From sequence record OL631483.1: a stretch of 64,000 nucleotides of DNA; one strand, 5' to 3'. Below, in pieces: positions 10,467 to 38,939 of this stretch; the first letter of the stretch is position 1; each line of letters starts with the position of its first letter. The notes below the pieces were generated by a model. The model did not search any database and was not told the DNA's origin. It saw only the letters and a program-made list of their open reading frames with translations. This DNA is from Escherichia phage ECML-363. Both the position numbers and the translations under genes were made by a program.

Positions 10467-11885
10467 TTATGGATAAGTATAGATGATACCAGTTTCTAAA
10501 GCAGTTTTATGGATGATGTATCCATTACGTGATTCTTGAACATCAACTTCTGGATAATCTTTCATCATCTTCTGAAGCGTATAACGATGCAAGTAGTACT
10601 TACTATCTGGATCTTCAGTTTTCCAATCTTTACCTTCTTCAGTCATTTTTTGGATTTCATCCATAACCCACCAACCGCACCAGATATAAGCTGAAGTACG
10701 ATGTGGAAGAGGATGAACATAAGGCAATTCACCTTCCGGTTCTGGAGCAACTTTATCAGTTACCTGAACTTGACCCGTCGTTTTAACTGTTTTGCTATCA
10801 TAATCAGTAGCAGTAACAGTTGCCGTAACTTCAATAGTTTGACTTCCAATAGATGAGGTATCAACGGTATATACATTAGTTGACCCTTCTACAGGAGAAG
10901 AATCTTTCTTCCATGAATAAGTAATTTGCGCTTCTTCTGGAGCATCAGTGACATTAGCAGTAAATGTAGCCGAAGCATCTTGCTGAACGTTAATAGAAGG
11001 AGGAGTCAATGTAACCTGTGGATTCATTGTCTTTTTATTAACAGTCAGTGATACTTCATTCGAAGTAACTTCCTTTTCATTGTAATTTTCTGCTGTTACT
11101 TGGGCTACGCATTTAATTCTTTTTACCCCACTTGTAGTTGGAGTATAGCTAAATGTAGAGTTAGTTTCTCCACCAACTTGAGAATCATCTACATACCATT
11201 TATATGTAGCAGACGCTCCATCAGGTTGAGAAGCTAAGGTAGCAGTAAATTGAACTGGGGTTCCAATTACTCCTGCTGGAGGACTATTAGGAGTTACTGC
11301 CAATGTAGTTGTCTGTGTCTTTTTATTAACAGTCAGTGATACTTCATTCGAAGTAACGGTTTTTTCATCATAATTTGTCGCGGTTACTTGAGCTACACAC
11401 TTGATTTTTTTAACTCCGCTGGCGGCAGGAGTGTAATTAAATGTAGCAGAAGTCGCTTCGTCTACAGGAGAATCGTCAACGTACCATTGATACGTAGCAG
11501 ATGCACCTGATGGCTGCGAAGCTAAGGCAGCAGTAAATTTAACAGCTGTTCCGATTACTCCAGCAGCGGGACTATTGGGAGTTACTGCCAATGTAGTTGT
11601 CTGAGTTTTGTTTTTGACTGTGATAGTTGTAGTAGCTTCTGCTGTTTCAGCTTCAGATTCTGGAACTGTATTTGTTGCAACAACTTTAATAGTCTTTTGA
11701 CCAGCAGGACCTTTTAATACATAATCAAAAGTTGCTTCAGACCCATCTTGTGGAGCATTATCTACACTCCAAGCATAAGTAATAGTTCCACCTCCAGTTT
11801 CACCACTGGGTGCAGCAGTAAACTGCTTGGTTTCATCAATAACCCCTGTCGGTGTTTTAGGAGTTATATCAACTGTAAAAGCCAT
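10467..11885 (-). CDS. hoc: Hoc, highly immunogenic outer capsid protein, with four tandem Ig-like domains
   Basis: 472 aa; ~96 aa Ig-like repeats (T4 Hoc has three in 376 aa); C-terminal capsid-binding region; position between 24.x and inh. Confidence 0.85.
   Translation of the reverse strand: MAFTVDITPKTPTGVIDETKQFTAAPSGETGGGTITYAWSVDNAPQDGSEATFDYVLKGPAGQKTIKVVATNTVPESEAETAEATTTITVKNKTQTTTLAVTPNSPAAGVIGTAVKFTAALASQPSGASATYQWYVDDSPVDEATSATFNYTPAASGVKKIKCVAQVTATNYDEKTVTSNEVSLTVNKKTQTTTLAVTPNSPPAGVIGTPVQFTATLASQPDGASATYKWYVDDSQVGGETNSTFSYTPTTSGVKRIKCVAQVTAENYNEKEVTSNEVSLTVNKKTMNPQVTLTPPSINVQQDASATFTANVTDAPEEAQITYSWKKDSSPVEGSTNVYTVDTSSIGSQTIEVTATVTATDYDSKTVKTTGQVQVTDKVAPEPEGELPYVHPLPHRTSAYIWCGWWVMDEIQKMTEEGKDWKTEDPDSKYYLHRYTLQKMMKDYPEVDVQESRNGYIIHKTALETGIIYTYP
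11028..11603 (-). repeat. hoc: 288 bp tandem repeat encoding duplicated Ig-like domains of Hoc
   Basis: Near-identical 40-mer at 11028 and 11316; a second ~26-mer recurs at 11290 and 11578; encoded 96 aa units are strongly similar. Confidence 0.8.
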
Positions 11886-21796: not shown

Positions 21797-22761
21797 TGTA
21801 TTCTTTAGAGGAATTTAATAATCAAGCAATAAACGCAGACTTCCAACGTAATAATATGTTCAGCTGTGTTTTTGCTACAACTCCATCAACTAAAAGTTCA
21901 TCGTTAATAAGCTCAATTAGTAACTTTGCTTATAATAACTTGGGTCTAAATTCAGATTGGTTGGGATTAACTCAAGGTGATATTAATCAGGGAATTACCA
22001 CGCTAATTACCGCTGGCACACAAAAACTGATAAGAAAATCAGGGGTTAGTAAATATCTTATTGGTGCCATGAGTCAACGTACAGTTCAAAGTTTATTAGG
22101 CTCATTTACAGTTGGTACATATTTAATTGACTTCTTTAACATGGCATATAACTCATCTGGATTGATGATATATTCTGTAAAAATGCCAGAGAATAGATTA
22201 TCCTATGAAACTGACTGGAACTATAATTCTCCTAATATTCGTATAACTGGAAGAGAATTAGACCCTTTGGTTATTTCATTTAGAATGGATTCAGAAGCTT
22301 GTAACTATCGTGCAATGCAAGACTGGGTTAACGCCGTTCAAGACCCAGTAACTGGATTGCGTGCTTTACCGCAAGATGTCGAGGCAGATATTCAGGTCAA
22401 TCTTCATTCTCGCAATGGATTACCACATACTGCGGTGATGTTCACTGGCTGTATTCCAATATCTGTGAGTGCTCCTGAGTTATCATATGATGGAGATAAC
22501 CAAATAACTACATTTGATGTTACTTTCGCTTATAGAGTCATGCAGGCTGGAGCAGTTGATAGACAAGCTGCCCTTGAATGGCTTGAATCTGCTACTATAA
22601 ATGGTATTCAAAGCGTTCTCGGAAATAGTGGAGGTGTTACTGGACTATCTAATTCGCTTTCACGACTTAGTAGATTAGGGGGAACTGCAGGAAGCATTTC
22701 AAATATTAATACTATGACAGGAATTGTCAACTCGCAAAGTAAAATATTAGGAGCAATATAA
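21796..22761 (+). CDS. 54: Baseplate tail tube initiator gp54
   Basis: 321 aa (T4 gp54 is 320 aa), synteny, followed by a terminator hairpin. Confidence 0.88.
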   Translation: MYSLEEFNNQAINADFQRNNMFSCVFATTPSTKSSSLISSISNFAYNNLGLNSDWLGLTQGDINQGITTLITAGTQKLIRKSGVSKYLIGAMSQRTVQSLLGSFTVGTYLIDFFNMAYNSSGLMIYSVKMPENRLSYETDWNYNSPNIRITGRELDPLVISFRMDSEACNYRAMQDWVNAVQDPVTGLRALPQDVEADIQVNLHSRNGLPHTAVMFTGCIPISVSAPELSYDGDNQITTFDVTFAYRVMQAGAVDRQAALEWLESATINGIQSVLGNSGGVTGLSNSLSRLSRLGGTAGSISNINTMTGIVNSQSKILGAI

Positions 22762-22765
22762 CAAT

Positions 22766-22795
22766 GGGGACCGAAAGGTCCCCATGTTTTTATTT
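22766..22795 (+). terminator. Terminator after gene 54
   Basis: GGGGACC-GAAA-GGTCCCC hairpin followed by a T-rich tract. Confidence 0.6.
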
Positions 22796-23080
22796 ACGGA
22801 ATGAAATAAAAGCAGCAACTGAAGAAACAGAGGTTTCTTCAATATAAACCTCAATTTTTACCGGAGCTTCTGACTCAAATTTACCTGTTACTACACCCTG
22901 AAAAATACTTTCAGTCTGTTCTGGCTTTGAAAAATTTTCAGAAGGAAAAATTCCAAACTTTTTATCGGTTCCGAAAATTTTAATAAATTCATCGTAAACT
23001 GCTTCATTAAAAGCATTATCAGCAGGAATAACGCCTTCAACTACAAGTTCTTGACCTAAAAAGCGCAAAGAAGATTTCAT
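22790..23080 (-). CDS. Hypothetical protein (T4 alt.-3 position)
   Basis: 96 aa ORF with its own early-type promoter and GAGGAA RBS. Confidence 0.6.
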   Translation of the reverse strand: MKSSLRFLGQELVVEGVIPADNAFNEAVYDEFIKIFGTDKKFGIFPSENFSKPEQTESIFQGVVTGKFESEAPVKIEVYIEETSVSSVAAFISFRK

Positions 23081-23088
23081 TTTGTGTT

Positions 23089-23141
23089 CCTCATGTTATG
23101 TCAGTAAGACTACTATAACACAACACGAGGGACTTGTAAAC
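23089..23141 (-). promoter_or_regulatory. Early (sigma70-type) promoter plus leader cassette upstream of the alt.-3-like ORF
   Basis: Minus strand GTTTAC(-35), ~18 nt spacer, TATAGT(-10), then AACAUGAGGAAC leader with SD; near-identical copy at 38886-38939. Confidence 0.6.
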
Positions 23142-25198
23142 TACATTTTGAACTTTTTAGACATTCCGTTAATGTTAACCAAAGAAGCTAAGATTTGAGA
23201 AACTTCGTTTTCCTCTTCTTTTGATTCTTCTACAAGGAATTGATTAAATCCAGCCATTGGACGAACTTCACCAGTTTCCATTAGATGGTCGCCATCATAT
23301 ACTGATTCTTCTAATTGTTCAGAAGGAGGAACGATTGTACCTTCGATTAGATACTTGTTATAAGCAGTTTCTTTCATAAAGTAAGTACTTACTTTATTAA
23401 TCTTCAGTAAAATTCCACGTGGTAGAATAACTTCAGCTTCTGATGGAAATCCTGATAAATGACCCGGAACGATAACTTTAACTCGTTCAGCTCCTTTAAT
23501 TACCATACCCACGCTAGTTTCAGCATCTTCATTAGCATATGTAGAATGACTACCCATATGCATCAAATCTTCTGCATCAACGGAACCTTCTCCTTCACCA
23601 GAAAATACTGCTCCGGAATCATCTAAGGCCATATAATTTTTACCATACTCACCAAAGATATTTGGTTTAAGTGATGTCGATACGAAGTTCTTGAAATAGA
23701 ACATTTTATTTTCAATGTTATGACGCAAAGTTTTAAAAGTAACTTCTTGTCCACGGTAAAGTGTAGTTCCTGGAGGAAGAACTGAACCTTTAACGAATGC
23801 AGAATCAAGCGTCTCAATATGTTTAATAGCTCGTTCCATATATTCTTCACGGGTAGAATCTGGTTTACCCAAAAGGAACGAGTTCATTTCAACATATGAA
23901 TCTGCGCAATAATCTTCAATTACGTCAGATTCAGCCTGAGTTAATCCTTTTGGAGTTACTTCGGTGCTTGCATATTCATACGCCTGAGCAGCGGATTCAT
24001 CAATTAATTTATAAATGCCATTCATGACAAATTGAATAATAGCTGTCTTTTCATCTGGCGTAGCTTTAGAACCTTTAACTAAATCATTGACAATTTTCTT
24101 AATAACATCAAAGCTATTAGAAATATTAATGTCAGCAAGATCGCTTAAAATTTTATCAGTTTTGTAATTAAAGAAGTCTTTATTCTTTAAATATTCCTGG
24201 GAACCTTGATATGATGTATCGCTCTGCAACTTGATAGATGGATCGCGTAAACGTGCATGGGCTAATGCAATATGATTTCGGAAACTTTCTAGTTCATAAT
24301 CGCTAGATTTAAAACGAGAAGCACTTCTCATACCGCCGATAGCTCCTTTGCTAAAGTTTGAACCAATCTGAATAACGCCAGAGTTCATTGGTCCTTCTGC
24401 TTTATATACCGGAACTTTAGATTCAAACTCTTGATATTTCTTAGCAGCGAAGCTATCACCCTGAAGTGAAGCATCAACAGTAGAATATTGAGCTTGTGCT
24501 GCTAATCGACGACTAATTTTAGTTTTCTGAATAACAGCTTGATCCGTACGCTTATCATTTTCTAAAGCAATAGAAGCAGCAACTGCGACAGCTTTAGGAA
24601 CAGCATTACCTGTTTTAACGTCTACATAAACATCACCAACCTTTGATTCAACTTTTGTGAATAACTCAGTTGAAATAGGAGGTACACCTGGAATGTCTTC
24701 TAAATTGGCATTTTTACGGTAAACCATAATATATGCATATTTCTTATCATAGTCCCAGATTTCCTTTAAAAGAACATATCGACCTGCTCCTTTAGTACGT
24801 ACTAAACGGTCAGCAATAACTTGCATTTGACGAGCAGCGCCATTTGTTTTACTTTTTAGTACGCGGAATAGGCATGCATCAATTTTATACTGTTTCATTG
24901 TTTGAAGAGCAGTATCAAAAACCGCATTAATGACACCAATTGGATTTCCACCCAAGTTTTTAAGCTTGACTAATGATAATTTCTCGTTGACACCTATCAT
25001 TACGATATGCATCATTTTGTCGCCTGGCTTAACGTTTTTATTCGTATCACCGCCAGAGGTGTATGTACAAAATCGAAATCCAGGAAGAACGCTTTCTTCA
25101 CCGGCTTGAATAGCAAAAATTTGAGGTATTTTATGCTTAGGATTTAAGTTAACAACCGGCGCCGAAGCGCCGTCAAATAATTCTGTAATAAGTTCCAT
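23141..25198 (-). CDS. Alt-family ADP-ribosyltransferase paralog
   Basis: 685 aa; N-terminus MELITELFDG shared with the adjacent paralog; C-terminal R-S-E elements (YRGQ, STS, EAEVILPRG). Confidence 0.8.
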   Translation of the reverse strand: MELITELFDGASAPVVNLNPKHKIPQIFAIQAGEESVLPGFRFCTYTSGGDTNKNVKPGDKMMHIVMIGVNEKLSLVKLKNLGGNPIGVINAVFDTALQTMKQYKIDACLFRVLKSKTNGAARQMQVIADRLVRTKGAGRYVLLKEIWDYDKKYAYIMVYRKNANLEDIPGVPPISTELFTKVESKVGDVYVDVKTGNAVPKAVAVAASIALENDKRTDQAVIQKTKISRRLAAQAQYSTVDASLQGDSFAAKKYQEFESKVPVYKAEGPMNSGVIQIGSNFSKGAIGGMRSASRFKSSDYELESFRNHIALAHARLRDPSIKLQSDTSYQGSQEYLKNKDFFNYKTDKILSDLADINISNSFDVIKKIVNDLVKGSKATPDEKTAIIQFVMNGIYKLIDESAAQAYEYASTEVTPKGLTQAESDVIEDYCADSYVEMNSFLLGKPDSTREEYMERAIKHIETLDSAFVKGSVLPPGTTLYRGQEVTFKTLRHNIENKMFYFKNFVSTSLKPNIFGEYGKNYMALDDSGAVFSGEGEGSVDAEDLMHMGSHSTYANEDAETSVGMVIKGAERVKVIVPGHLSGFPSEAEVILPRGILLKINKVSTYFMKETAYNKYLIEGTIVPPSEQLEESVYDGDHLMETGEVRPMAGFNQFLVEESKEEENEVSQILASLVNINGMSKKFKM

Positions 25199-25201
25199 GA
25201 T

Positions 25202-27298
25202 TTATCCTTGAACGAACTTGTAAGGCATGTTTGTAATATCTATGCAAGACGCAATAATTCCAAGAGATGATTCTACTTTCTGTTTAATATTTGATGAAAC
25301 AAATGATGCAAAGTCAACTCTGTCTTCTATTTCAATATCACCTGTCATTGCAACCAATTCACCAGTTTCCATTAAATGGTCTCCATCATAGATTACCGAT
25401 TCGGTGAGCTCTTCCGTGGTCATAACTTCAGCTTGAATGAGTTTTGTATTATTAGATGTTGTTCCGTCATTATTAGAAGCATCAGTTATTTTATTAACCT
25501 TGACCATCAATCCGCGTGGTAGAATAACTTCAGCTTCTGTTGCTATTCCGAGACTTCCTGGATATACAACATTAACTTTATGAGCTCCATCAATTGCCCA
25601 TCCTATTTGAACTTTAACATATTCAGGATTTTCTTTATACGCTCTTATTTCGTTTGGATTAATAGTTATTCCTTCTTCATTTTTATCAACTGTTAATTCG
25701 TTACGAGCTTCTGGTTCTAAAAGACCAATACCAGCATGTGTGATTCCAAAACGTCCAAAAATGATAGGAGTTAAAGAAGTAGATACAAAATTTCTGAAGT
25801 AGAACACTTTATTTTTAACTAACGCTTCATATATAGGAGCAGTCATACTTTGAGCACGATAAACTGTAATGCCTTCTGGTATACGGTCACCATTTTCAAA
25901 AGCTGAATCTAAGTTATTTATAGCAGATTCAATTTCTTTTTCACTCATTACATCATATCGTTCTGGATTGTAACGACCTAAAAGAAGATTATTGATGTCA
26001 GTATATCCTGAACCGCAATATTCTCTAATGCCACGCTTTTGTGATGGAGTATATTTAGAACCATCGCGGGCAATAGTAATATCAATCATTGGACCAGCAC
26101 CAATTCCAGAAAAACTGTAAATCATTCGTTTGAGGAATTTAGTTTTTGCTGCGTTCCAGGAATTTTTAGTTATTTCTTCCCAGACTTCATCTGGTTGTCC
26201 TTTACGATTTTTATTATGATTAGCAAGCCATTTATCTTTATAATCTTCAAAGAATTGATTTACAGCTGCTGCGTATTTCTCTAAACATTTTATTGAAGTA
26301 GTTGGTTCATTTTTAATTGCATTAAAAATTACTTCTTTAATTTTTTCTGAAACTTCACCGACTTGACTCATTGGAAAGAATTTATAATCATAGTGAAGTT
26401 CATCTGCCGTTCCTTCAGCAATAATTTTTGCTGCCTTTGTTTTAGAAGCTAATGAATTAATTCCAATTTTCATTTCTTCTGCTTCGGGAATTAAAGGTGC
26501 AGTAGCTGGTTTATTAAAATTAGCTGCTGTAGATTCATACTTCTGGAATAATTCACTTTCAAATCTAGAAGATTCCAATGACTGACTTTGTGCAATTGCT
26601 CTACGGGAAATTTTAACTTTAACGATTACGGCTTGGTCAGAACGTTTATCATTTTCTTGTGCAATAGATGCAGCAATTGCCTCATTTTTGGTTACTTGAG
26701 CTCCAGTATCTTTATTGATATAAACATCACCGACCTTCGATTCAACTTTAGTAAAAAGCTCGGTGCTAATTTCTGGAACTCCTGGAATGTCTTCTAGTGA
26801 TACATTTTTACGATGTATAAGAATATATGCATACTTTTTATCGTAATCCCAGAGTTCCTTAAGAAGGACGTATCTGCCACCTGAACGACTGCGGATGAGT
26901 CTATCAGCAATAAGTTGAATTTGTCGAGCTTGACCGGCGGTTTTAGACTTAAGAATACGAAGCATGCAGGCATCAATTTTATATTGACGCATTGTTTGCA
27001 TTGCAACAGTAAAAACTGAATTGATATAATTAATCGGGCTTGGACCAAGACCTTTTAATTTAGCAATTGAACCTTTAGCAGTTAATGTAAAAGGAACAAT
27101 GTGCATCATTTTATCGCCCATCTTTAAATCACGATTAGTATCACCTCCAGATGTATAGGTACATAAACGAAAGCCTGGTTGTTCAATTGCATCATCAACA
27201 TGAACTGAAAAAATTTGTGGTATTTTCTTCTTTGGATTTAAGTTTGTAATCGGAAGAGTAGTATCTTCGTCAAATAATTCTGTAATGAGTTCCATCAT
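25202..27298 (-). CDS. alt: Alt ADP-ribosyltransferase (packaged internal protein)
   Basis: 698 aa; YRAQ, STS and EAEVILPRG motifs; adjacent to gene 30 as in T4; minus-strand late promoter upstream; the true start may be the second Met at 27295. Confidence 0.8.
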   Translation of the reverse strand: MMELITELFDEDTTLPITNLNPKKKIPQIFSVHVDDAIEQPGFRLCTYTSGGDTNRDLKMGDKMMHIVPFTLTAKGSIAKLKGLGPSPINYINSVFTVAMQTMRQYKIDACMLRILKSKTAGQARQIQLIADRLIRSRSGGRYVLLKELWDYDKKYAYILIHRKNVSLEDIPGVPEISTELFTKVESKVGDVYINKDTGAQVTKNEAIAASIAQENDKRSDQAVIVKVKISRRAIAQSQSLESSRFESELFQKYESTAANFNKPATAPLIPEAEEMKIGINSLASKTKAAKIIAEGTADELHYDYKFFPMSQVGEVSEKIKEVIFNAIKNEPTTSIKCLEKYAAAVNQFFEDYKDKWLANHNKNRKGQPDEVWEEITKNSWNAAKTKFLKRMIYSFSGIGAGPMIDITIARDGSKYTPSQKRGIREYCGSGYTDINNLLLGRYNPERYDVMSEKEIESAINNLDSAFENGDRIPEGITVYRAQSMTAPIYEALVKNKVFYFRNFVSTSLTPIIFGRFGITHAGIGLLEPEARNELTVDKNEEGITINPNEIRAYKENPEYVKVQIGWAIDGAHKVNVVYPGSLGIATEAEVILPRGLMVKVNKITDASNNDGTTSNNTKLIQAEVMTTEELTESVIYDGDHLMETGELVAMTGDIEIEDRVDFASFVSSNIKQKVESSLGIIASCIDITNMPYKFVQG

Positions 27299-27318
27299 AT
27301 CCTCTCTAGTGTTTATTC

Positions 27319-27326
27319 TATTTATA
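27319..27326 (-). promoter_or_regulatory. Late promoter (TATAAATA on minus strand) for alt
   Basis: TATTTATA on plus strand ~20 nt upstream of the alt start. Confidence 0.6.
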
Positions 27327-27331
27327 AAATT

Positions 27332-27349
27332 AAAGGCCCGAAGGCCTTT
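27332..27349. terminator. Palindromic hairpin between the gene 30 operon and alt
   Basis: AAAGGCC-CGAA-GGCCTTT. Confidence 0.45.
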
Positions 27350-27536
27350 AATAATCTATTGGTAATAGAGTACGATATATTTCAAACTTTGGACCTTTTT
27401 CATAAGCATCAAAAGTTTCTGTGAATTTATTATAAGCATATGCATCTATAAATTCAATCATGATTTGCGATACAGAAGTAGAAACATCTCCACCTTCTTT
27501 TTGAGCCACGACAATTGTTTCTAAGTAAGCTTTCAT
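27348..27536 (-). CDS. Hypothetical small protein
   Basis: 62 aa ORF whose start overlaps the gene 30 stop. Confidence 0.5.
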   Translation of the reverse strand: MKAYLETIVVAQKEGGDVSTSVSQIMIEFIDAYAYNKFTETFDAYEKGPKFEIYRTLLPIDY

Positions 27537-28996
27537 AAACCAGTTACCTCATGAAAATCGCCAAATACATCTTCGAACGTATTAGCTTTAGTTTTATCTT
27601 CACGTAAACGAATTGCAATTGGAAGAAATAGCTTAACGTAATCAGTACGTCCATCTAATTTTACCCAGCCGTTGCATTCGCACTCTAGAATTTTTCCAAT
27701 ATAATAATTTTGGTTTTCCATAATGCGAGTACGATCAAGTTCATGCGATTTTATACCGGCTTTATCTTTTAAGCCTGAACCAGCATTTACTTTAATTTTT
27801 CCACACTCTGATTCAAGAATGAAACCACCTGCTTTAGTAGGGTCTTTACGGTGAGGATAAATTCCTACAATTTTTAAATCAACATCAATTACTTCTTTAA
27901 ATTTATAAAGATTTTTTGAACGAGCATTTTCCCATAATCCATCGATATTTTTGAGAATAATACCTTCAAGACCTTGGTCAATATACTTTTTATAAATTAC
28001 CTTAGCTTCATCTAGGTTATTTACTATCTGGTTTTCAATTAAAATTACTTTATCATAGCCTGATGTCATTTGTTCTAGTTTAGAAAAACGTACATCATAT
28101 TTTAAACGAAATGCTGGAAGACCATATATTTCTACTAATGGAACATAGTCCCAGACCTGAAACTTCATGCATTGTGCTTCTTTTTCAGAAATGGTTCCCT
28201 TTAAAGATTTATTAGCGATTCCATTAGAAGTAGTACGTGATTCAGCTACTTCGGCGAATTCTTTAGCTTTACTAATTTCAGGATAAGCATCAAAAAGAAA
28301 ATCTAGGCCTTCTGGTTCCTTTTCAACTTGCTCATGGTATACCAATTCGCCATCAATTAACACACCTTCTGGATGAATCTGGCGAGCTTCTGCAGTCATT
28401 TTGATTAACTCTTCCTTGAGAAGATCTAATCCTAGATATTCATTACCAGCTCGTGATAAAAGACGAACATCATCTAATTCATCACCTCTGACTTCAGCAA
28501 AGCACCGAGCTCCATCAGCTTTTAACTGGGCAAAAGCTGGAAATTTGATATTCTTATTAATGCCTTTTTCATCATAAGAACTTGCCAGCATTTGAGGTTG
28601 TTCAGGAATTAAACCTGGCCAAACTTTGTTTGCAATAGATACTGATGCACCACATTCAAGGTCTCGCATCATCACCCGACGCAAAACTTCAACATCATCT
28701 TTTTTACCGTCAGCAATATATCCAGTTAATTCCTCAATTGCCGCATTTCCGGTCAATTTCCGAGTAGCTAACGTGAATTCAATGAAGTCAAGCATATCGG
28801 TAAGAGTCAACATTCCAAAACTCTGGGTAGTAATACCCGGTTTAGGCCATTTCTTGATATAATACTGTAACCCACGAGAATAAGTCAGACGATATACTCG
28901 TTTAAGCAATTCATTATCTTTATTCTTTTCAAGAATTGCTTGCTTCTGCTTAGTTGAACCAATAGATGCTATTTCGTTCAGAATTTTAAGAATCAT
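27533..28996 (-). CDS. 30: ATP-dependent DNA ligase gp30
   Basis: 487 aa (T4 ligase length); active-site lysine motif KADGAR; N-terminus MILKILNEIASIGSTKQKQ. Confidence 0.95.
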   Translation of the reverse strand: MILKILNEIASIGSTKQKQAILEKNKDNELLKRVYRLTYSRGLQYYIKKWPKPGITTQSFGMLTLTDMLDFIEFTLATRKLTGNAAIEELTGYIADGKKDDVEVLRRVMMRDLECGASVSIANKVWPGLIPEQPQMLASSYDEKGINKNIKFPAFAQLKADGARCFAEVRGDELDDVRLLSRAGNEYLGLDLLKEELIKMTAEARQIHPEGVLIDGELVYHEQVEKEPEGLDFLFDAYPEISKAKEFAEVAESRTTSNGIANKSLKGTISEKEAQCMKFQVWDYVPLVEIYGLPAFRLKYDVRFSKLEQMTSGYDKVILIENQIVNNLDEAKVIYKKYIDQGLEGIILKNIDGLWENARSKNLYKFKEVIDVDLKIVGIYPHRKDPTKAGGFILESECGKIKVNAGSGLKDKAGIKSHELDRTRIMENQNYYIGKILECECNGWVKLDGRTDYVKLFLPIAIRLREDKTKANTFEDVFGDFHEVTGL

Positions 28997-29262
28997 TGTT
29001 CATCCTTTAGAGTTTGGTTTACAGCTCTATTATAAATCAATTCATCATTAAGCTCAGTCAAAGACCTGTGGTACGTGGTTCTAACTTTATTTCCTTGCAT
29101 CCAGTGCTTGACGTAAATGAAACCTTGCTCTACACATTTTTTAAAAATTCGTTCGTCTTTTTGAGCTCGGAATTCTGGATTGCATCTAAAAAATTGATTT
29201 ACGTGACCGTAATCACGTGTAGTATTACCTTCATTTTCATAAATAGTGTGAACAACAAACAT
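28993..29262 (-). CDS. Hypothetical protein (T4 30.1 position)
   Basis: 89 aa ORF, translationally coupled in the 30.x operon. Confidence 0.55.
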   Translation of the reverse strand: MFVVHTIYENEGNTTRDYGHVNQFFRCNPEFRAQKDERIFKKCVEQGFIYVKHWMQGNKVRTTYHRSLTELNDELIYNRAVNQTLKDEQ

Positions 29263-30098
29263 TAGAATGCTCCTTGGAAAATATTATCACCGCTAGTAGG
29301 TCTATTATACAAATACTCTATGCCACCAGGTTTAATATAGTTCCATGTCTGAAACGGATGCGTCTGATATGGATGATATAGATTATAAGGATTAAATCCA
29401 GGAGTTCTCCAGGTAGTGTTCCAAGGAAAAGAATCGTTTTTAATCATCTTTTCAATTACATCTTTTACAGCTTTTTCACTATCAAAACTTTCTTTATTTT
29501 CCTTCGATGGAAAAAGCTTATTCTCTACATCATTCCATGTATAAACTCGCTGTGCAGTTTTTGGAATACTGTCACGCTCCCCTCGAGCCATCCAATAAAC
29601 AGGAACATTTAATATTTCACTTGCATGATCGCAGTGGTGAGCGAGATCGTCAATATAACAAATTACGTTATATTTCTCTTTTGCCTTTTTGAACAACTCT
29701 TCTTTTGAAGAATCATGACCACACATCAATACTTCTGAGAAGGCACCAGGAAAAAGAGCATTCAAATTAAATTGACGATTCAGCAGAGCGTCAATAGAAT
29801 CACCCAATGCTGTAACAGCTACAAAATTATAATCTTCTTTTAATTTGTTAATTACACATAGGGCATCTTTATATGGAGACAAATAGCGAATAAAATCTGA
29901 ACGATTATACTTTTCGATTAATTTAACACCAAGTTCTTCATCGCAATTAAAGAGCTTACCAGGAGAAATAAATTTTTCGTCCTGAATCATTTTTAAAATA
30001 TGTTCCAACGGAAGATTATATTTTTGGGCAAAATAAGGAAGGCCCGATTGCCAGCTTAAACACACCCCGTCAATATCAGTCAAAATAGTAGGCTTCAT
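29262..30098 (-). CDS. HAD-superfamily hydrolase-like protein (T4 30.2 position)
   Basis: 278 aa; N-terminal DIDGV (HAD motif I) and a downstream YIDD acidic motif. Confidence 0.6.
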   Translation of the reverse strand: MKPTILTDIDGVCLSWQSGLPYFAQKYNLPLEHILKMIQDEKFISPGKLFNCDEELGVKLIEKYNRSDFIRYLSPYKDALCVINKLKEDYNFVAVTALGDSIDALLNRQFNLNALFPGAFSEVLMCGHDSSKEELFKKAKEKYNVICYIDDLAHHCDHASEILNVPVYWMARGERDSIPKTAQRVYTWNDVENKLFPSKENKESFDSEKAVKDVIEKMIKNDSFPWNTTWRTPGFNPYNLYHPYQTHPFQTWNYIKPGGIEYLYNRPTSGDNIFQGAF

Positions 30099-30559
30099 AG
30101 AGAGTCTCTTAATAGGTTTAACACATCAATAAATTCAGCTTCGGTTAGTATTGTATCATCTTTTGTTAGACTACTAGCCATGCTGTGCTTCAAAACTTTT
30201 CCTTTCGAGGCTAGTAATGCATCACGAAAGCCCTTGTTTTGAATCGCTGCCTCAAAATACGCATTTGTGTATAATTCTTTCCACGCTGGAGAGTATCTTG
30301 AAAACGGAACTCCGAGCCAGAAGAGGGTCCCACGGTCCTGAGCTCTAGCATAAGACCTTCCAGCTTGTTGGGCGGCAAGCCCGGATAACCCAAATACACG
30401 ACGTTGCTGTTCAACATTTTTCACCTTACATCCTTGGAGAAATCCTTCAAGACCTCCAAATTGGATACCATTCATAACAAAAGGCCATTGGGCGAAATTA
30501 CTTAATGCACACGATGGCCATCTAAAATTGCTTCTAATCTCTAACTCAGGCATTTTCAA
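30095..30559 (-). CDS. NADAR (YbiA-like, DUF1768) domain protein (T4 30.3 position)
   Basis: 154 aa; LSNFAQWPFVMNGIQFGGLEGFLQGCK resembles the YbiA/NADAR core FSNFAAWP...EHYFQAQK. Confidence 0.6.
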   Translation of the reverse strand: MKMPELEIRSNFRWPSCALSNFAQWPFVMNGIQFGGLEGFLQGCKVKNVEQQRRVFGLSGLAAQQAGRSYARAQDRGTLFWLGVPFSRYSPAWKELYTNAYFEAAIQNKGFRDALLASKGKVLKHSMASSLTKDDTILTEAEFIDVLNLLRDSL

Positions 30560-30752
30560 TACTTATAATTTCAACATCAGCCCAATGACCATAGCAAGGA
30601 AGACGAAATTCAACTGGCCAGTTAGGGTCCTTTTCTAATATAATAGACTTAACTTGTGGTTCTTCATGTTCATCAGTATATGGATTTTTATCTGTTACTT
30701 TATATGTGACCTTAATGTACTGAATTCCAAAAATCTTATTAATTATATTCAT
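30546..30752 (-). CDS. Hypothetical protein (30.4 position)
   Basis: 68 aa ORF in operon context. Confidence 0.5.
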   Translation of the reverse strand: MNIINKIFGIQYIKVTYKVTDKNPYTDEHEEPQVKSIILEKDPNWPVEFRLPCYGHWADVEIISIENA

Positions 30753-30946
30753 ACTAATTCCTTTAATCCGTAAATAGGAGATAATTCATCACCCATACGA
30801 AGGTCTTCATTTCCATCTACCCAGGAAACAATATAAGCCTCTTTTATTTGAACACCACTCCATTTAAATGGAGGTAGAACCTTAGAAATTAATCCAGGTA
30901 TACCAACTCCCTTTAATTCAACAGTTTGACCTAAAAAGAATTTCAT
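30749..30946 (-). CDS. Hypothetical protein (30.5 position)
   Basis: 65 aa ORF, start/stop coupled with neighbours. Confidence 0.5.
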   Translation of the reverse strand: MKFFLGQTVELKGVGIPGLISKVLPPFKWSGVQIKEAYIVSWVDGNEDLRMGDELSPIYGLKELV

Positions 30947-31233
30947 CAGAACCTCATCTGAAAGCCGTGTGATTTAACATTACCGCCGCCAATATCAGAA
31001 ATATTAATTTCACGCGCAATTGAAGGGTCAATGTCAATTTCACGATTAAGTTTAGCGATAGCTAAAGTATCACGCCCATTTACTGTACGGAATTCTAAAG
31101 GACAAACCACATCAACATAATTTTTAATTGATTCACTGGTAGGTTGCAAATGAGCAGGAAGGTCTTTAGGCGCCTTAGAGAAAACCACTTCACAGAAATT
31201 TTTGCGGGTGTCAAAATAAGTAGTCATAAACAT
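30946..31233 (-). CDS. Hypothetical protein (30.6 position)
   Basis: 95 aa ORF. Confidence 0.55.
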   Translation of the reverse strand: MFMTTYFDTRKNFCEVVFSKAPKDLPAHLQPTSESIKNYVDVVCPLEFRTVNGRDTLAIAKLNREIDIDPSIAREINISDIGGGNVKSHGFQMRF

Positions 31234-31250
31234 AGTATTTTCCTTAGTAA

Positions 31251-31264
31251 GGGGCCGAAGCCCC
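31251..31264. terminator. GC-rich hairpin between 30.7-like and 30.6-like ORFs
   Basis: GGGGC-CGAA-GCCCC; T-tract only on the plus side, so role is unclear. Confidence 0.35.
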
Positions 31265-31274
31265 TCATTTTATT

Positions 31275-31640
31275 TTAAATATCAAATTCGTTAAGAACTA
31301 CATCAAAGATTGCTTCAAGATGCTCAGGTTTAGCTCTGTTACTCAGAATATGACGAATCCAAGTTTTAACCAGAAGCTTGCGATTAGCGCCATTCCAGCA
31401 AGGATGGGTCCCTAAATCGCGTTGACGAAAATCATCATCCAGAGCGATTTTGAAGTTTGAACCTTCCATTGTGATTGAAACCGTGATGCCATTTTCAAAT
31501 CGCATATAAACGTAGTTAGGAGTCATATACTGTTCAATTTCGCATACTGATCCATTTTGATGTTTCCAAAGGCAAATAGTATCAATAGAACCTGCAATAC
31601 CATTAGAAACATATTTACGTTCAAAGTTGATGTAGTTCAT
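31275..31640 (-). CDS. Hypothetical protein (30.7 position)
   Basis: 121 aa ORF. Confidence 0.55.
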   Translation of the reverse strand: MNYINFERKYVSNGIAGSIDTICLWKHQNGSVCEIEQYMTPNYVYMRFENGITVSITMEGSNFKIALDDDFRQRDLGTHPCWNGANRKLLVKTWIRHILSNRAKPEHLEAIFDVVLNEFDI

Positions 31641-31708
31641 TTTTATTCTCCGAGATGTTTAATTGCGGTACAGGTATATAATATCATATCCTGTACCAAA
31701 GTAAACAA

Positions 31709-32041
31709 TTATTTTACTACTTTCCAGTGCTTCATGTCAAGTTTACCAACTTTTTTCATCTTCTCAATCAAACGTTCGGCACGTTGGCGAGCTGTAACAT
31801 AATACCATTCGCCTAATTCATTTTGTTCAATTTTTCCAACGATTACTGTATTCAATTCATAAATCCAACCAGTAAAGAAATTATGAACTTGAATTGTAAA
31901 GGTGAAATCTGTTCCCATACCTTCTGTTGTTTCTACTTCAATAATATCACCTTCAATTGCCATTAAGAACCACATAGTTTCATCATATTTACCATTGAAG
32001 CATTTAGTCTTAACTGCAGCGTTCAGATTAATCGTTTTCAT
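31709..32041 (-). CDS. Hypothetical protein (30.8 position)
   Basis: 110 aa ORF with AAGGAG RBS. Confidence 0.55.
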   Translation of the reverse strand: MKTINLNAAVKTKCFNGKYDETMWFLMAIEGDIIEVETTEGMGTDFTFTIQVHNFFTGWIYELNTVIVGKIEQNELGEWYYVTARQRAERLIEKMKKVGKLDMKHWKVVK

Positions 32042-32111
32042 TTTATTCTCCTTTGTTTGTGTAAGATAATACTATCACAAAGGAACCATACTGTAAACAA
32101 CTTTATGCAAT

Positions 32112-32148
32112 CTTTGGAAAATAAAAAAGGACTCCCGAAGGAGTCCTT
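32112..32148 (-). terminator. Intrinsic terminator downstream of the 30.9-like ORF
   Basis: Minus-strand GGACUCC-UUCG-GGAGUCC followed by UUUUUUUAUUUU. Confidence 0.7.
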
Positions 32149-32151
32149 AAC

Positions 32152-32370
32152 TTATGCTTTCTGCTTACCAAAACGAGAAGCATCATCTCGAAGAACCGCA
32201 CGTGCTCGGCGCATGATCTTCTCAACAGTTTGATTGATACGAGAGTTCGACCCACGCTTGTAGCCAGCGCGTTTAGAATCACCAACTTTCTTTTCAACTG
32301 CTTTCTTTGCTTTAGCTTGTTTTGCCATTATAAATTCTCTTTTAAATGAAAATGCAGGACTTATTGGCAT
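32152..32370 (-). CDS. Small lysine-rich basic protein (30.9 position)
   Basis: 72 aa (or 58 aa from the internal Met at 32328); followed by a strong intrinsic terminator. Confidence 0.5.
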   Translation of the reverse strand: MPISPAFSFKREFIMAKQAKAKKAVEKKVGDSKRAGYKRGSNSRINQTVEKIMRRARAVLRDDASRFGKQKA

Positions 32371-32571
32371 TGCCTGCGCAAGCCCTCAAGGGGAACATAG
32401 GTTTTGGATATTTAACGACAGGATAACCATAAACCCGTCATCATTCACATTCAAGAGGTACACCATAAAACTGCCGGGGTCTTAAAACTATAATGATTCG
32501 CAAATCATTAATCAGACAGTTCGATGGCTCCTCGATTTTAGCTCACACTAAGGCAGTGAATCTCCAATAAA

Positions 32572-32820
32572 TTACTTCAATGTTACCACAAAGTGACGAA
32601 CTGCTTTTCGCGCAGCAGAAGCCAGAGGCTTAGCATACTTAAGTTCATCTTTTTCCTGAAGCTCAGCAGCTAATGCAGTTTGAGCAGGATTTAGATGTTT
32701 GAAATAACGCAGGATTTCAAGAGCTTCGGCTTCAACATCAATAGATGCGCCATAGTTTTCGTGACCATTATTCCATGCGTTTCGTTGCAGTTCAAGAGCG
32801 TGTTGTAATTGTTTAATCAT
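32572..32820 (-). CDS. rIII: Probable RIII lysis-inhibition accessory protein
   Basis: 82 aa (T4 RIII length); nine ORFs lie between it and gene 30, matching T4 30.1-30.9; sequence identity not independently confirmed. Confidence 0.55.
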   Translation of the reverse strand: MIKQLQHALELQRNAWNNGHENYGASIDVEAEALEILRYFKHLNPAQTALAAELQEKDELKYAKPLASAARKAVRHFVVTLK

Positions 32821-32967
32821 TTAAAAATTCTCGTTAGAGATTAAAACTCGGTAGTCACGTTCTTCTGAATTTCATCTTCTTTCGACAGATCTCTCAGTTG
32901 TAGACTACCACATAGAATTGTTCGGTTAACTTATTATTCCGACACCCAATTCATATTATTATTTATA

Positions 32968-33303
32968 TCACTTATAAAGACACGGAATAGCTTTATAGTG
33001 ACAAGTAACGAATTTTTGTTTAATTTCTTTTGGCTGCTTAAGACCCAGAGCTACAAAAGGATGCGGAACATTTCGAATTTGACCAACTGGAAGAGAAGTC
33101 AAATCACCAACTTCGCAGAAACCTTCAGGAACATCAGGACCAACAGAGTGAACTACACACAGTTCAGGAACTTCACCTTGAACACGTTTACCGATAATAA
33201 GTCCTGATTCTGTAACTTCTTCATCACCGGCTTGTGCAGGTTCAGAAACTAAAATAACATATTCACCGACAGCACGAATTGGTAGCTGTTGTACTTCAGA
33301 CAT
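32968..33303 (-). CDS. 31: Co-chaperonin gp31 (GroES analogue)
   Basis: 111 aa (T4 gp31 length), synteny. Confidence 0.88.
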
Positions 33304-33359
33304 CGTTTTTCCTTTTTGTTAACAGATGAATTAATAATAACAAATAATTCTTAAAGCAT

Positions 33360-33668
33360 TTATTTACCAATAAATTGAAGCAAATGCTCAACTTTCATAC
33401 CATTAACAGAAATCAATTTGTCAATAGAAAAACCTCGCCACTCGCCAAGCTCAACATCAAATACTGGAATCATATCAGTAGATTCTTTCCGAGCAGATTC
33501 AGTCAATTTACCAGTTTGCATGGTTGGCATAAAGTCAGCATCACGAGTACCTTTCATAGTACGAATAGTACCATCAGACTTTTCAAAAACTACGTTTGAA
33601 ACACCCATGGACAATTTAGTTTTCAAAATTTCACGAATTGCTACTTTCTGTTCAGTTGTCAGTTTCAT
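33360..33668 (-). CDS. Hypothetical protein
   Basis: 102 aa ORF between cd and 31. Confidence 0.55.
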   Translation of the reverse strand: MKLTTEQKVAIREILKTKLSMGVSNVVFEKSDGTIRTMKGTRDADFMPTMQTGKLTESARKESTDMIPVFDVELGEWRGFSIDKLISVNGMKVEHLLQFIGK

Positions 33669-33905
33669 TTATTTACCTATTACAGTTTTAATATGAGTTG
33701 TTCCACGTTCTTTAAGGGTGGAAAGTAATTTTTGGCATTTTTCTAAATCAGATTTCCAACTATATGGTCTATCAATACTAGTCCAATCAGTTTTATAATA
33801 CTGTTTCCATTTAGAGAAAAAATATTTCTTATACTCTACAGCAAACGAGATGTTCTCATTAGAATAAGAACTAATTGCTGTGAGCTGTACCAAACGAAAT
33901 TTCAT
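33669..33905 (-). CDS. Hypothetical protein
   Basis: 78 aa ORF. Confidence 0.5.
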   Translation of the reverse strand: MKFRLVQLTAISSYSNENISFAVEYKKYFFSKWKQYYKTDWTSIDRPYSWKSDLEKCQKLLSTLKERGTTHIKTVIGK

Positions 33906-34486
33906 TATTCACCACAGAATTCGTTGATATTTTCCCAGTTTAACTTATTCAAGTTTTTCTTAGGAACATTAAACACTTCAATACCTGCATTTCGCAGAAT
34001 ATCATCCCAGCCAGGTTTATTTTTATCGTATGTTTCACAATAAACCAGTTTTTTAATACCAGATTGAGCTATCGCTTTTGCACAATCTGGACAAGGAGAA
34101 AGTGTTACATACATAGTAGCACCTTCAATAGAAGAACCATTTCGTGCAGCAAACAAAATTGCATTTAGTTCAGCATGAATTTCATTTTTAGACGACCATT
34201 CAGAGTGAGCGCTCCGGTGTTCTTTTGCCAAGACAAAACGATCAGTTGAACCAAATGATACGCATTCAGGCTTATGGCCTTGAATGATAGTATGTTTAGG
34301 CTTATTCAGCAACCAACCTTGCTCAGCAGCATAATCACAACAGTTCACACCCCCTGCGGGTGAACCATTATACCCAGTAGAAATAATACGTCCATTCTTT
34401 TCAATTACTGCTCCTACCTTCCAGGAGCAACATTTTGATTCCTGCGATACTAAATATGCAATTTGAAGTACTGTACTCGCTTTCAT
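33905..34486 (-). CDS. cd: dCMP deaminase
   Basis: 193 aa (T4 Cd length); zinc-binding deaminase motifs HAE...PCxxC (HAELNAILFAA, PCPDCAKAI). Confidence 0.9.
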   Translation of the reverse strand: MKASTVLQIAYLVSQESKCCSWKVGAVIEKNGRIISTGYNGSPAGGVNCCDYAAEQGWLLNKPKHTIIQGHKPECVSFGSTDRFVLAKEHRSAHSEWSSKNEIHAELNAILFAARNGSSIEGATMYVTLSPCPDCAKAIAQSGIKKLVYCETYDKNKPGWDDILRNAGIEVFNVPKKNLNKLNWENINEFCGE

Positions 34487-34821
34487 TTCATAATCACCAG
34501 ATAAGCAGATTTAGCAGTTTCAACACGATAAATTTCGTGACGAAGTTTAGTTATACTTTTAATAACAGAACTAATTATATTCTGCCCATCTTTAAAGCGG
34601 TTTTTCTTATCAATAAAAACTGCGCCAGTCATCTTTTTGTGAAGCTCAACTGGATACTTCGTCACAATAATAGCATCATACACAGAAGGATGAATACTAT
34701 TCACCAGAGTATCATTCATTAAAGTTATTCTAATGAACTGTGCTGTTTCAGAATCAAGCGCTCTATGATCGCCAGTATCATTTTCAAGACAATTATCAAT
34801 TATATCAGTTAAATTCATCAT
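34483..34821 (-). CDS. Hypothetical protein (cd.x series)
   Basis: 112 aa ORF. Confidence 0.5.
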   Translation of the reverse strand: MMNLTDIIDNCLENDTGDHRALDSETAQFIRITLMNDTLVNSIHPSVYDAIIVTKYPVELHKKMTGAVFIDKKNRFKDGQNIISSVIKSITKLRHEIYRVETAKSAYLVIMK

Positions 34822-35054
34822 AGTACGCCATACACCCTTTGTGCTTCAACTAATCCATCAAAATCTAATTTAAGATGCGATATTTGATCGCCATCACCTG
34901 GATTCACAATTACTAATACTGAACGAGGAGTTTCGGTAATAACACGAACCGATGTTTCAGGAAATCGTTCAGAAATCCTATTTACTAATTCCTGCGCAAA
35001 TAGTTTAACTTTTTCTTGGAATTCTTTAACAGTAATTGGTTTTTCACTTAGCAT
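34818..35054 (-). CDS. Hypothetical protein (cd.x series)
   Basis: 78 aa ORF. Confidence 0.5.
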   Translation of the reverse strand: MLSEKPITVKEFQEKVKLFAQELVNRISERFPETSVRVITETPRSVLVIVNPGDGDQISHLKLDFDGLVEAQRVYGVL

Positions 35055-35575: not shown

Positions 35576-35604
35576 TTCAATTTCCTCATTTGTTTTGGTA
35601 GAGC

Positions 35605-35635
35605 TATAATATCACAACTCTACCGTAAAGTAAAC
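35605..35635 (-). promoter_or_regulatory. Candidate early promoter (GTTTAC -35, TATTAT -10)
   Basis: Minus-strand GTTTAC followed 18 nt later by TATTAT, in the gap upstream of the 175 aa ORF. Confidence 0.45.
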
Positions 35636-35637
35636 TA

Positions 35638-35913: not shown

Positions 35914-35915
35914 AT

Positions 35916-36108: not shown

Positions 36109-36116
<8 letters not shown>
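35916..36116 (-). CDS. Hypothetical protein
   Basis: 66 aa ORF. Confidence 0.5.
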
Positions 36117-37506
<1,390 letters not shown>

Positions 37507-37510
<4 letters not shown>

Positions 37511-38033: not shown

Positions 38034-38383
38034 TTAGAAAGGTCCTGGATGTCTTCTGCGAACTTGTTGAAGGAGTTGTTGATTTGTTTTTCAACCAATC
38101 CTGGCTTACGAGCCACCACATCCGCCTTCTTTGCATCTTTGCGCAGTTTTTCATTTTCACGCTCAATAGCAGCAATCGCCTCACGATTTTTATTATTCAT
38201 CGCATCAATATAATTATACTGAATTCGCAAATTATTTAATGCTAAGGCGTTTTCATTGGCCGTTTTTGTAATTTCTACAACAGACGTTTCTAATCTTTCT
38301 ACCTTATTTTTTAAAATAATAGATGTTCCGCCAAATGCTATTACAAGTAATAGCAATCCAGCTGTAAAATTACTTACATGCAT
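38030..38383 (-). CDS. Inner-membrane spanin subunit (i-spanin; T4 PseT.3 equivalent)
   Basis: 117 aa; N-terminal TM helix (GLLLLVIAFGGTSIIL) followed by a coiled-coil-like charged domain. Confidence 0.6.
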   Translation of the reverse strand: MHVSNFTAGLLLLVIAFGGTSIILKNKVERLETSVVEITKTANENALALNNLRIQYNYIDAMNNKNREAIAAIERENEKLRKDAKKADVVARKPGLVEKQINNSFNKFAEDIQDLSK

Positions 38384-38880
38384 AAAGTTTTAATAACCTC
38401 TATAATATCGTCTTGAGAAAGACCGTTAATTAAAATATGATGTTCAGCCGGAGATTTAGAAATTTTAAAGCACGCCGCAACATCTTCTGCCATATCCGAT
38501 GCGCTACGATTTGGATTACTAATTCCAAGACGATGCTTTCCTGTCAAAGGATTAACGATGATATAGCATTTGCAGCTATTGATATGAACATTAGGTTGAG
38601 TCTGATTAATAAACACTTCACAATCATACTTAGCGAGTTGATTTTCTAAAAAGACTTTCATCTCCTCAACCGCATCAGGAAGCATATCACGGGCTTGCTC
38701 AAGACGACGATTTCGATATTCTTTAATGGTCGTTTTCCGCTTGACTTGCTTAGCTAAATCTTTCTTAAGATCGGTGATATATCCAACTCGACGATTTCCT
38801 TTGAATACAGAAATCCCATCTGTAGTATCACCGTATGCTTCAACGACCATTTCAGTAGTAATAAGCTGCAAATCCATCAT
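38374..38880 (-). CDS. alc: Alc-like protein (host transcription shutoff), assigned by position and length only
   Basis: 168 aa (T4 Alc is 167 aa), between rnlA and the spanin genes; own early-type promoter. Confidence 0.5.
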   Translation of the reverse strand: MMDLQLITTEMVVEAYGDTTDGISVFKGNRRVGYITDLKKDLAKQVKRKTTIKEYRNRRLEQARDMLPDAVEEMKVFLENQLAKYDCEVFINQTQPNVHINSCKCYIIVNPLTGKHRLGISNPNRSASDMAEDVAACFKISKSPAEHHILINGLSQDDIIEVIKTLCM

Positions 38881-38885
38881 AAAGT

Positions 38886-38939
38886 CCTCATGTTATGTCA
38901 GTAAGACTACTATAACACAACATGAGGGACTTGTAAACA
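38886..38939 (-). promoter_or_regulatory. Early (sigma70-type) promoter plus leader cassette upstream of the alc-like gene
   Basis: Second copy of the ~52 bp element (GTTTAC ... TATAGT ... CATGAGG), with a perfect 9 bp inverted repeat CCTCATGTT/AACATGAGG. Confidence 0.6.

Follow-up and report, generated by a model that had tools for sequence, protein, structure and literature searches.

The 64,000-nucleotide stretch of Escherichia phage ECML-363 analysed in the present study (sequence record OL631483.1; the whole stretch is hereafter the window) is a segment of a Tequatrovirus (T4-like) genome, and it carries on its minus strand two nearly identical 54-nt cassettes, each holding an early promoter and a leader with a Shine-Dalgarno sequence (SD), one upstream of alt.-3 (copy A) and one upstream of alc (copy B). 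Positions 22000-26000 are 98-99% identical to RB51, wV7, Sa45lw and their relatives, and 37500-40500 is similar. Gene names were taken from the RB51 and T4 annotations together with a list of open reading frames (ORFs). The two loci comprise the following features.

23088..23141, minus strand: cassette copy A, upstream of alt.-3, sharing 53 of its 54 bases with copy B
22790..23080, minus strand: alt.-3 (96 aa, function unknown), served by copy A, with its ATG at 23080
38885..38938, minus strand: cassette copy B, upstream of alc, with the sequence GTTTACAAGTCCCTCATGTTGTGTTATAGTAGTCTTACTGACATAACATGAGGA
38374..38880, minus strand: alc (inhibitor of host transcription), served by copy B, with its ATG at 38880
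38942-38944, minus strand: stop codon of rnlA (gene 63), the upstream neighbour of copy B

The original prediction, made from the letters of the window alone, had described two near-identical promoter and leader cassettes upstream of minus-strand early genes, and both parts of this description were borne out, with the coordinates shifted by one base and the length set at 54 nt. The copies differ solely at cassette position 16, which is G in copy A and A in copy B. Copy A sits between the alt.-2 stop and the alt.-3 ATG, G 23141 being both the last base of the alt.-2 TAG and the G of GTTTAC, and copy B starts 3 nt past the rnlA stop and ends 4 nt short of the alc ATG. In both copies GAGGA lies 4-7 nt upstream of the ATG, and AAAAAGTTCAAAAT is found upstream of copy A. 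A search of the window allowing up to three mismatches returned exactly these two sites, and dinucleotide shuffles gave none. The similarity runs from the G of GTTTAC to GAGGA, and the flanks are unrelated. The six other GTTTAC-type early promoters in the window have only 21-36 of the 54 positions in common with each other or with copies A and B, and the identity of the two copies thus reflects homology rather than promoter consensus. T4 itself carries both copies. In a phage collection, 997 places in 499 records, all of them Tequatrovirus-like, matched with an identity of at least 90%, which amounts to two per genome, and no genome held the third copy for which a search had been recommended. 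A scan of IMG/VR with the 15-mer GTTTACAAGTCCCTC returned mostly chance matches and few Tequatrovirus contigs, and it added no more than a few pairs of copies.

The promoter elements named in the original prediction, GTTTAC and TATAGT (with TGn, 17 nt from TTTACA), together with the leader CATGAGGA, are all present in both copies.

23112..23140, minus strand: copy A promoter, with -35 TTTACA at 23140-23135, a 17-nt spacer, and TGn and -10 TATAGT at 23117-23112
38909..38937, minus strand: copy B promoter, with -35 TTTACA at 38937-38932, a 17-nt spacer, and TGn and -10 TATAGT at 38914-38909

Both scored 10/12 with TG in a consensus scan, and judged by these elements each copy is a strong T4-type sigma-70 early promoter. 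The late promoter motif TATAAATA is absent from the cassette, the internal promoter being of the early sigma-70 type. Transcription is predicted to start at A 23105 in copy A and A 38902 in copy B, the seventh nucleotide after the -10 element (A37), which lies in a CTTAC motif recurring in other genera. The predicted start falls at the border of the loop and the 3' arm of the hairpin described below, on the first bases of that arm, and a transcript from the cassette's own promoter would therefore lack the 5' arm.

RNA that reads through the cassette from upstream folds in silico into a long hairpin that spans the promoter and the SD.

23086..23133, minus strand: copy A readthrough-RNA hairpin, 20 pairs including a G.U pair at position 16, with the SD GAGG at 23089-23092
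38882..38932, minus strand: copy B readthrough-RNA hairpin, 22 pairs, with the SD GAGG at 38886-38889

The 5' arm corresponds to cassette positions 7/9-25, comprising the promoter spacer and part of the -10 element, and the 3' arm to positions 36-57, comprising the transcribed leader including the SD GAGG. The apical stem AGUA/UACU (4 bp) includes half of the -10 element and closes the loop GUCU. The G at position 16 of copy A retains pairing as G.U. The 9-bp inverted repeat noted in the original prediction is thus real, though understated, since the RNA of the whole cassette folds as a hairpin of 20-22 bp. RNAfold gave -24.8 kcal/mol for copy B, and compared with shuffles the z score of the hairpin was -7.0 (copy B) and -5.3 (copy A) for the cassette alone and -5.5 (copy B, 101 nt) and -3.8 (copy A) in a context of about 100 nt. 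At gathering thresholds, no Rfam family was found in the whole window.

The probability that the SD is unpaired was then computed from partition functions for the readthrough RNA and for the primary transcript. The alc SD is predicted to be unpaired with a probability of 0.008 in the readthrough RNA and 0.70 in the primary transcript, and the alt.-3 SD with a probability of 0.001 and 0.115, respectively, all four SD bases being paired in silico in the readthrough RNA of both copies. For alc of Tequatro-, Dhaka-, Gelderland-, Karam- and Winklervirus, the same calculation gave at most 0.01 in the readthrough RNA, rising to 0.40-0.74 in the primary transcript. For promoters whose hairpin stops short of the SD, the ratio of readthrough to primary accessibility was about 1.

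The junction of rnlA and alc was compared among GenBank phages of eight other Tevenvirinae genera and 38 IMG/VR loci. The distance from the -35 element to the alc ATG is 60-64 nt throughout these loci, and in every genus the -35 element adjoins the upstream stop codon or overlaps it. In Dhaka-, Gelderland-, Karam-, Jiaoda-, Winkler- and part of Kanagawavirus, as well as in two further lineages, the bases that immediately follow GTTTACA are complementary to the leader holding the SD. The sequences of these stems vary by lineage, including CCCTCGTGTTGTG/..CATAACATGAGG, TCTCCATTTGGTTGTG/..ACCAAATGGAGA, TCTCCGTTTAGTT/AACTAAACGGAGA, TCCTCATCA/TGATGAGGA and TCCCCATTTTG/CAAAATGGGGA, and in the lineage with the last of these the SD itself has changed together with its partner, GGGG being matched by CCCC. 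The Alc proteins of the genera sharing this architecture are 45-60% identical. Read from the aligned loci, complementary stems of lineage-specific sequence are the product of compensatory change.

RNAalifold on a plain MAFFT alignment of 28 alc cassettes returned no pairs, the 3' arms being out of register, and was replaced by own versus cross arm duplexes, in-register pair counts and per-position partner tables; an alignment of all covariance-model hits was left out of these counts because it mixed antisense hits and other promoters. The duplex between a lineage's own 5' and 3' arms amounts to -15 to -24 kcal/mol, compared with means of -6.5 to -13 for foreign arms, and own pairing beats every cross pairing in 10 of the 11 hairpin-bearing lineages. 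In an in-register alignment of 14 sequences, 82% of the cells are paired, compared with 36-47% when the partner columns are slid, and four pairs are changed on both sides. The covariation score was 0.224, compared with 0.146 in shuffles, none of 500 shuffles reaching 0.224. Furthermore, a covariance model built from the alc cassettes of the other genera recovers the Tequatrovirus copies.

Considering these results, we propose the following scenario, in which we place moderate confidence: each copy may act as a transcript-specific translational gate, with an early promoter nested in an SD-masking hairpin. RNA entering from upstream, from far early or middle promoters or as late alt transcripts, would hold both arms; the anti-SD arm encoded by the spacer (CCCUC...) would pair with the leader (…CAUGAGGA) and hide the SD. 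RNA from the cassette's own promoter would begin at about the first base of the 3' arm, and with the 5' arm missing its SD would be free. Translation of Alc, and in Tequatrovirus also of Alt.-3, would be limited essentially to the period in which its own early promoter is active, the earliest minutes, and would be insulated from readthrough transcripts. In T4, middle promoters have been mapped upstream of alc at 138,939, 139,878 and 142,726 (PnrdB, PI-TevIII and PnrdA) and upstream of alt.-3 at 127,234 and 128,355 (P30 and P30.2) (PMC2988021), and these would supply the readthrough RNA to be silenced. A scan of 22000-41000 found no terminator-like site on the way to copy A from about 32.1 kb, nor on the way to copy B from 41.0 kb, where the scanned stretch ends.

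Several observations weigh against such a gate. In the primary transcripts of alt.-3 and of Jiaodavirus alc, the SD is predicted to be merely 0.04-0.12 open. The stem begins 10-13 nt after the upstream stop codon, and a terminating ribosome might open it. In the lineages L035, L048 and KLB31/L040, a hairpin at the same place ends 2-5 nt before the SD, and Mosigvirus and a few others have no SD stem at alc, only a mini-hairpin within the spacer. Outside Tequatrovirus the stems are almost purely Watson-Crick, and the sense fold is the more stable in just 20 of 35 sequences. In the window itself, the promoters 47348, 35634 and 31705 (minus strand) lie in strong hairpins that have the -10 element at their centre and leave the SD untouched (z -3.2 to -4.7). 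Literature searches gave no mapped start-site or translation data for either cassette promoter and, to our knowledge, there is no reason to confine Alc or Alt.-3 synthesis to the early period.

The alt.-3 locus of other genera offers a natural control. In the gap between alt and alt.-3 of six other genera, an early promoter lies directly past the alt stop, with a leader ending AACATGAGGA. These promoters share the -35 element and the spacing, but their spacer is not complementary to the SD and carries a small internal hairpin, for example CACCACA-AGG-ATGTGGT. The long hairpin is thus not a by-product of combining a promoter with an SD. As the SD-masking anatomy occurs at alt.-3 in Tequatrovirus only, and at alc in other genera too, the phylogenetic distribution suggests that the cassette is probably ancestral at alc and that it was copied from there onto alt.-3 in the Tequatrovirus ancestor. 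Ectopic recombination through the shared GTTTACA and AACATGAGGA ends may have replaced the ordinary alt.-3 promoter and leader.

Variation within Tequatrovirus was assessed in a sample of nine genomes only. The 3' arm is nearly invariant, its single variant, an A in place of G40 in T4 alt.-3, turning a U.G pair into the better U-A. Ten positions vary in the 5' arm and the loop: four keep the pair (G.U or A-U), two break it and the rest are unpaired bases; most changes in the 5' arm are transitions that preserve G.U pairs, and one of the pair-breaking changes turns TATAGT into TATAAT. Positions 16, 32 and 34 are polymorphic at both loci. Furthermore, RB51, IME339 and one IMG/VR genome each carry two identical copies, with haplotypes that differ between genomes. 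The shared polymorphisms and the identity within genomes suggest gene conversion between the copies, which would thus still occasionally exchange sequence.

In the T4 genes e, soc, 49 and I-TevI, long transcripts hold the ribosome-binding site within a helix, and translatable RNA comes from an internal late promoter, a mechanism that has been experimentally established for these four genes; some homing-endonuclease genes are listed with them (Uzan & Miller, 2010; PMC3014915). As in these genes, the SD of the cassette is buried in long transcripts, the promoter lies over the 5' strand and the structure recurs in related phages; the SD is paired in the readthrough RNA in silico, and by geometry from the predicted start the cassette's own transcript would lack the 5' strand. 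In those genes, however, the promoter is a late one and translation is delayed, whereas the cassette has an early sigma-70 promoter, whose spacer and -10 element form the 5' arm. The late promoter TATAAATA being missing, the cassette is a variant of this class and not a member. Neither alc, alt.-3 nor 30.8 is among the cases listed by Uzan & Miller (2010), where the word 'alc' does not occur (PMC3014915). Compared with ordinary T4 early promoters, in which a UP element, GTTTAC, TGn and the -10 element are found (PMC2988021), all elements match, with A-rich DNA upstream of copy A; the copies are set apart by sharing 53 of 54 positions, compared with 21-36 of 54, and by a full-length dyad that reaches the SD.

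A different reading starts from the PeSL (promoter-early stem-loop) cassettes of T4-type phages, which consist of an early promoter, a stem-loop, an SD and an ATG, fall into five subclasses by the position of the stem-loop and, in the interpretation of Arbiol et al. (2010; PMC2839356), serve to terminate or attenuate transcription and as substrates of recombination. The words 'translation', 'ribosome' and 'sequest' do not occur in that paper. On this reading, which we regard as unlikely though not negligible, the cassette would be a mobile PeSL-type element whose stem-loop attenuates or terminates upstream transcription and whose repeats of about 50 bp are patches of homology for recombination. 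The anatomy agrees with the definition, under which the stem-loop may also overlap the promoter boxes or lie between them (PMC2839356): a sigma-70 promoter with a spacing of about 17 nt (10/12) and a stable stem-loop within it lie in a short gap after the upstream stop, an AT-rich stretch with the stop codon and with the SD and ATG at its 3' end, and the whole is repeated. The stem-loops described for T4 and PST, however, immediately precede the promoter (Comeau et al., 2014; PMC4122927), whereas that of the cassette lies across it. The polymorphisms common to both loci and the identical pairs in RB51, IME339 and the IMG/VR genome indicate exchange, as this reading would have it. In addition, an ORF of 175 codons (RB32ORF214c-like; 35048-35575, minus strand), which SsoM_113 and IME339 have but T4 and RB51 lack, is inserted precisely at the junction of the SD end of another promoter-hairpin cassette, 35576-35637, and the cd.2 ATG. 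The sequence of that cassette, GTTTACTTTACGGTAGAGTTGTGATATTATAGCTCTACC...AAATGAGGAAA, is unlike that of copies A and B, and the insertion is in general agreement with the shuffling that Arbiol et al. proposed. Likewise, Gaprivervirus has an extra ORF inserted at the rnlA-alc junction.

Against this stands, first, the absence of a U-tract after the stem in copy A and in most genera, and neither copy was called by a terminator scan, although attenuation that needs no T-run may occur. PeSLs are numerous in hyperplastic regions at indels, whereas the cassette occurs twice per genome and coincides with no rearrangement. As direct repeats, the copies lie 13.2-15.8 kb from each other, and they bracket alt.-2, alt, gene 30 (DNA ligase), rIII, 31, cd, pseT, pseT.1-.3 and alc, some of which are essential in T4, so that a deletion between the copies would remove essential genes. 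Apart from small internal indels, T4, T2, RB51, KIT03, SsoM_113, IME339 and the window agree in the order of the genes between the copies and around them, and none of these seven genomes was found to have a rearrangement that ends at copy A or B. The deletion of the Alt paralogue in T4 ends about 20 bp upstream of copy A, not within it. The homology-patch role also leaves unexplained the covariation reaching the SD among genera that share no stem sequence. The original prediction had placed the copies among the promoter-stem-loop cassettes proposed to drive modular shuffling in T4-type phages; the likeness to this PeSL type stands as far as promoter, leader, SD and stem-loop are concerned and falls short in the many copies at rearrangements that characterize the class. 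It had further suggested that they may be recombination hotspots flanking the alt region, an idea that by its own refuting criterion fails for these two copies, which bracket alt.-2 through pseT and alc rather than the alt region, have no third counterpart and coincide with no synteny breakpoint in the genomes inspected. The gene-conversion pattern and the insertion bounded by 35576-35637 speak weakly in its favour.

Rather improbable, in our estimation, is that the inverted repeat acts as a DNA palindrome, a cruciform or dyad site that tunes promoter opening or is targeted in early shut-off, with an incidental overlap of the SD. Seven of the eight GTTTAC early promoters in the window lie in inverted repeats, three of which never reach the SD, and the mechanism of T4 early-promoter shut-off has been described as not understood (PMC3014915). 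Outside Tequatrovirus, the Watson-Crick stems are equally stable on both strands, so that RNA structure and DNA palindrome are indistinguishable there. In Tequatrovirus, however, two or three G.U pairs, which are mismatches in DNA, make the sense fold of the cassette 5-10 kcal/mol more stable than the antisense fold, favouring sense RNA. Moreover, a protein that binds a specific sequence is hard to reconcile with the lack of conservation in the stem sequences, and at alc the 3' arm follows the SD through its changes as well (GGGG with CCCC).

Translational coupling, which would have the SD masked in long RNA opened by the ribosome finishing rnlA or alt.-2 rather than silenced, has in our view a slim chance of being correct. 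The opening of an SD-masking stem by a ribosome on the upstream gene is a classical way of coupling, and the stop codon that abuts or overlaps the -35 element in every genus places the base of the stem about 10-13 nt past the stop. A terminating ribosome, however, unwinds about 8-10 nt, whereas the alc anti-SD bases lie at least 17 nt past the stop codon, and the tight spacing is equally explained by fitting a promoter into a 60-nt intergenic gap. The sequence does not separate coupling from simple masking. That the repeat is a neutral relic, a recent accidental promoter duplication with a functionless inverted repeat, is highly improbable: the 2-5% divergence of Tequatrovirus genomes means that conservation within the genus proves little alone, but compensatory change at alc in at least six other genera contradicts it. 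Two further candidates were set aside, an intrinsic terminator, as no T-tract follows the stem, and an operator for a dimeric protein, as the stem sequences are not conserved.

The PeSL class and the gating principle of e, soc and 49 are already known, and the repeat has been present in the T4 sequence for decades. The combination of an early promoter whose spacer serves as anti-SD strand, which covaries at alc and was probably transplanted to alt.-3, appears undescribed; literature searches found no earlier description of SD masking at alc, though the older T4 literature may contain one. If the proposed translational gate is correct, one compact 60-nt element would both start an early transcript and silence its gene in the abundant middle and late readthrough RNA, and it could be transferred whole to another gene together with its expression programme, the move from alc to alt.-3 in Tequatrovirus being the example. 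The 'late-only' gate of e, soc and 49 would thereby be extended to an 'early-only' gate, and PeSL stem-loops would gain a translational role not considered by their discoverers. Annotation and phage engineering would be affected, as protein synthesis could not be read from the abundance of alc, alt.-3 and 30.8 RNA and translation might change with edits to the promoter spacer. The recent connection of Alt.-3 with escape from the CmdTAC defence system (PMC11618068) gives its expression practical interest.

An element of the same anatomy and a different sequence precedes gene 30.8.

32039..32098, minus strand: element upstream of gene 30.8, in which the spacer TTCCTTTGT pairs with ACAAAGGAG (SD)

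The SD of gene 30.8 is predicted to be unpaired with a probability of 0.05 in the readthrough RNA and 0.96 in the primary transcript, and the element was also recovered by the covariance model of the other genera's alc cassettes (26.6 bits). Immediately upstream of its promoter lies a strong intrinsic terminator at 32127-32148 (minus strand), AAGGACTCCTTCGGGAGTCCTT followed by a T-run. The arms of the hairpins at promoters 47348, 35634 and 31705 are AGGCTATGGTA/TACTATAGCCT, GGTAGAGTTGTG/TATAGCTCTACC and GGTACAGGATATG/TATATACCTGTACC, respectively. As some hairpins stop short of the SD, selection on promoter-embedded hairpins is partly not about the SD. Promoter-embedded hairpins might be a general selected design of Tevenvirinae early promoters, either as self-unmasking gates (alc, alt.-3 and 30.8) or at the DNA level as a part of early shut-off, a generalization that we consider doubtful. 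A weak 5-bp pairing of spacer and SD was seen at promoter 48346 (minus strand).

In the early promoters of Dhaka-, Mosig-, Gelderland-, Gapriver- and Marfavirus, a mini-hairpin lies wholly within the 17-nt spacer (alt.-3 in L011-L016; alc in L003, L039, L051 and L053). It has a covarying stem and a purine-rich loop (AAGGAA, ATGGA or ACGG), as in CATCC-ATGGAA-GGATG and GCAC-AAGGAA-GTGC, and corresponds to the PeSL subclass 'between -35 and -10'. The extra ORF of Gaprivervirus (L007, L027, L028 and L052) encodes 78 aa annotated as 'inhibitor of host transcription', lies between rnlA and alc and is preceded by a terminator-like hairpin that overlaps a -35-like GTGTAC; a second small hairpin, GGTTCCATCA/TGATGAGGACC, masks its own SD. 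In the alc leaders of Karam-, Gelderland- and Dhakavirus (L004-L006 and L021-L030), the SD is GGAG followed by an A-rich tract, the cleavage motif of the RegB endoribonuclease, which would be exposed only in the unmasked primary transcript; the T4-type alc SD, GAGGA, does not contain GGAG.

Around copy A, a bidirectional terminator at 22764-22785 (both strands) separates alt.-3 from gene 54 and ends alt.-3, which is thus a self-contained promoter-gene-terminator unit. On the other side of copy A, 23141-27298 (minus strand) holds two full-length paralogues of the Alt ADP-ribosyltransferase in tandem.

25202-27298, minus strand: alt, Alt ADP-ribosyltransferase
23141-25198, minus strand: alt.-2, full-length 685-aa Alt paralogue

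At the DNA level, alt and alt.-2 repeat with a period of about 2094 nt and an identity of 70-82%, and in T4 the Alt paralogue is reduced to the short remnants alt.-1 and alt.-2. Further tandem repeats in coding regions were found at 60981-61589 (300 nt, two units, 88% identity), 11028-11603 (288 nt, two units, 78%) and 53096-53766 (a 68-nt motif, three units), and these probably encode repeated domains of tail-fibre and hoc genes.

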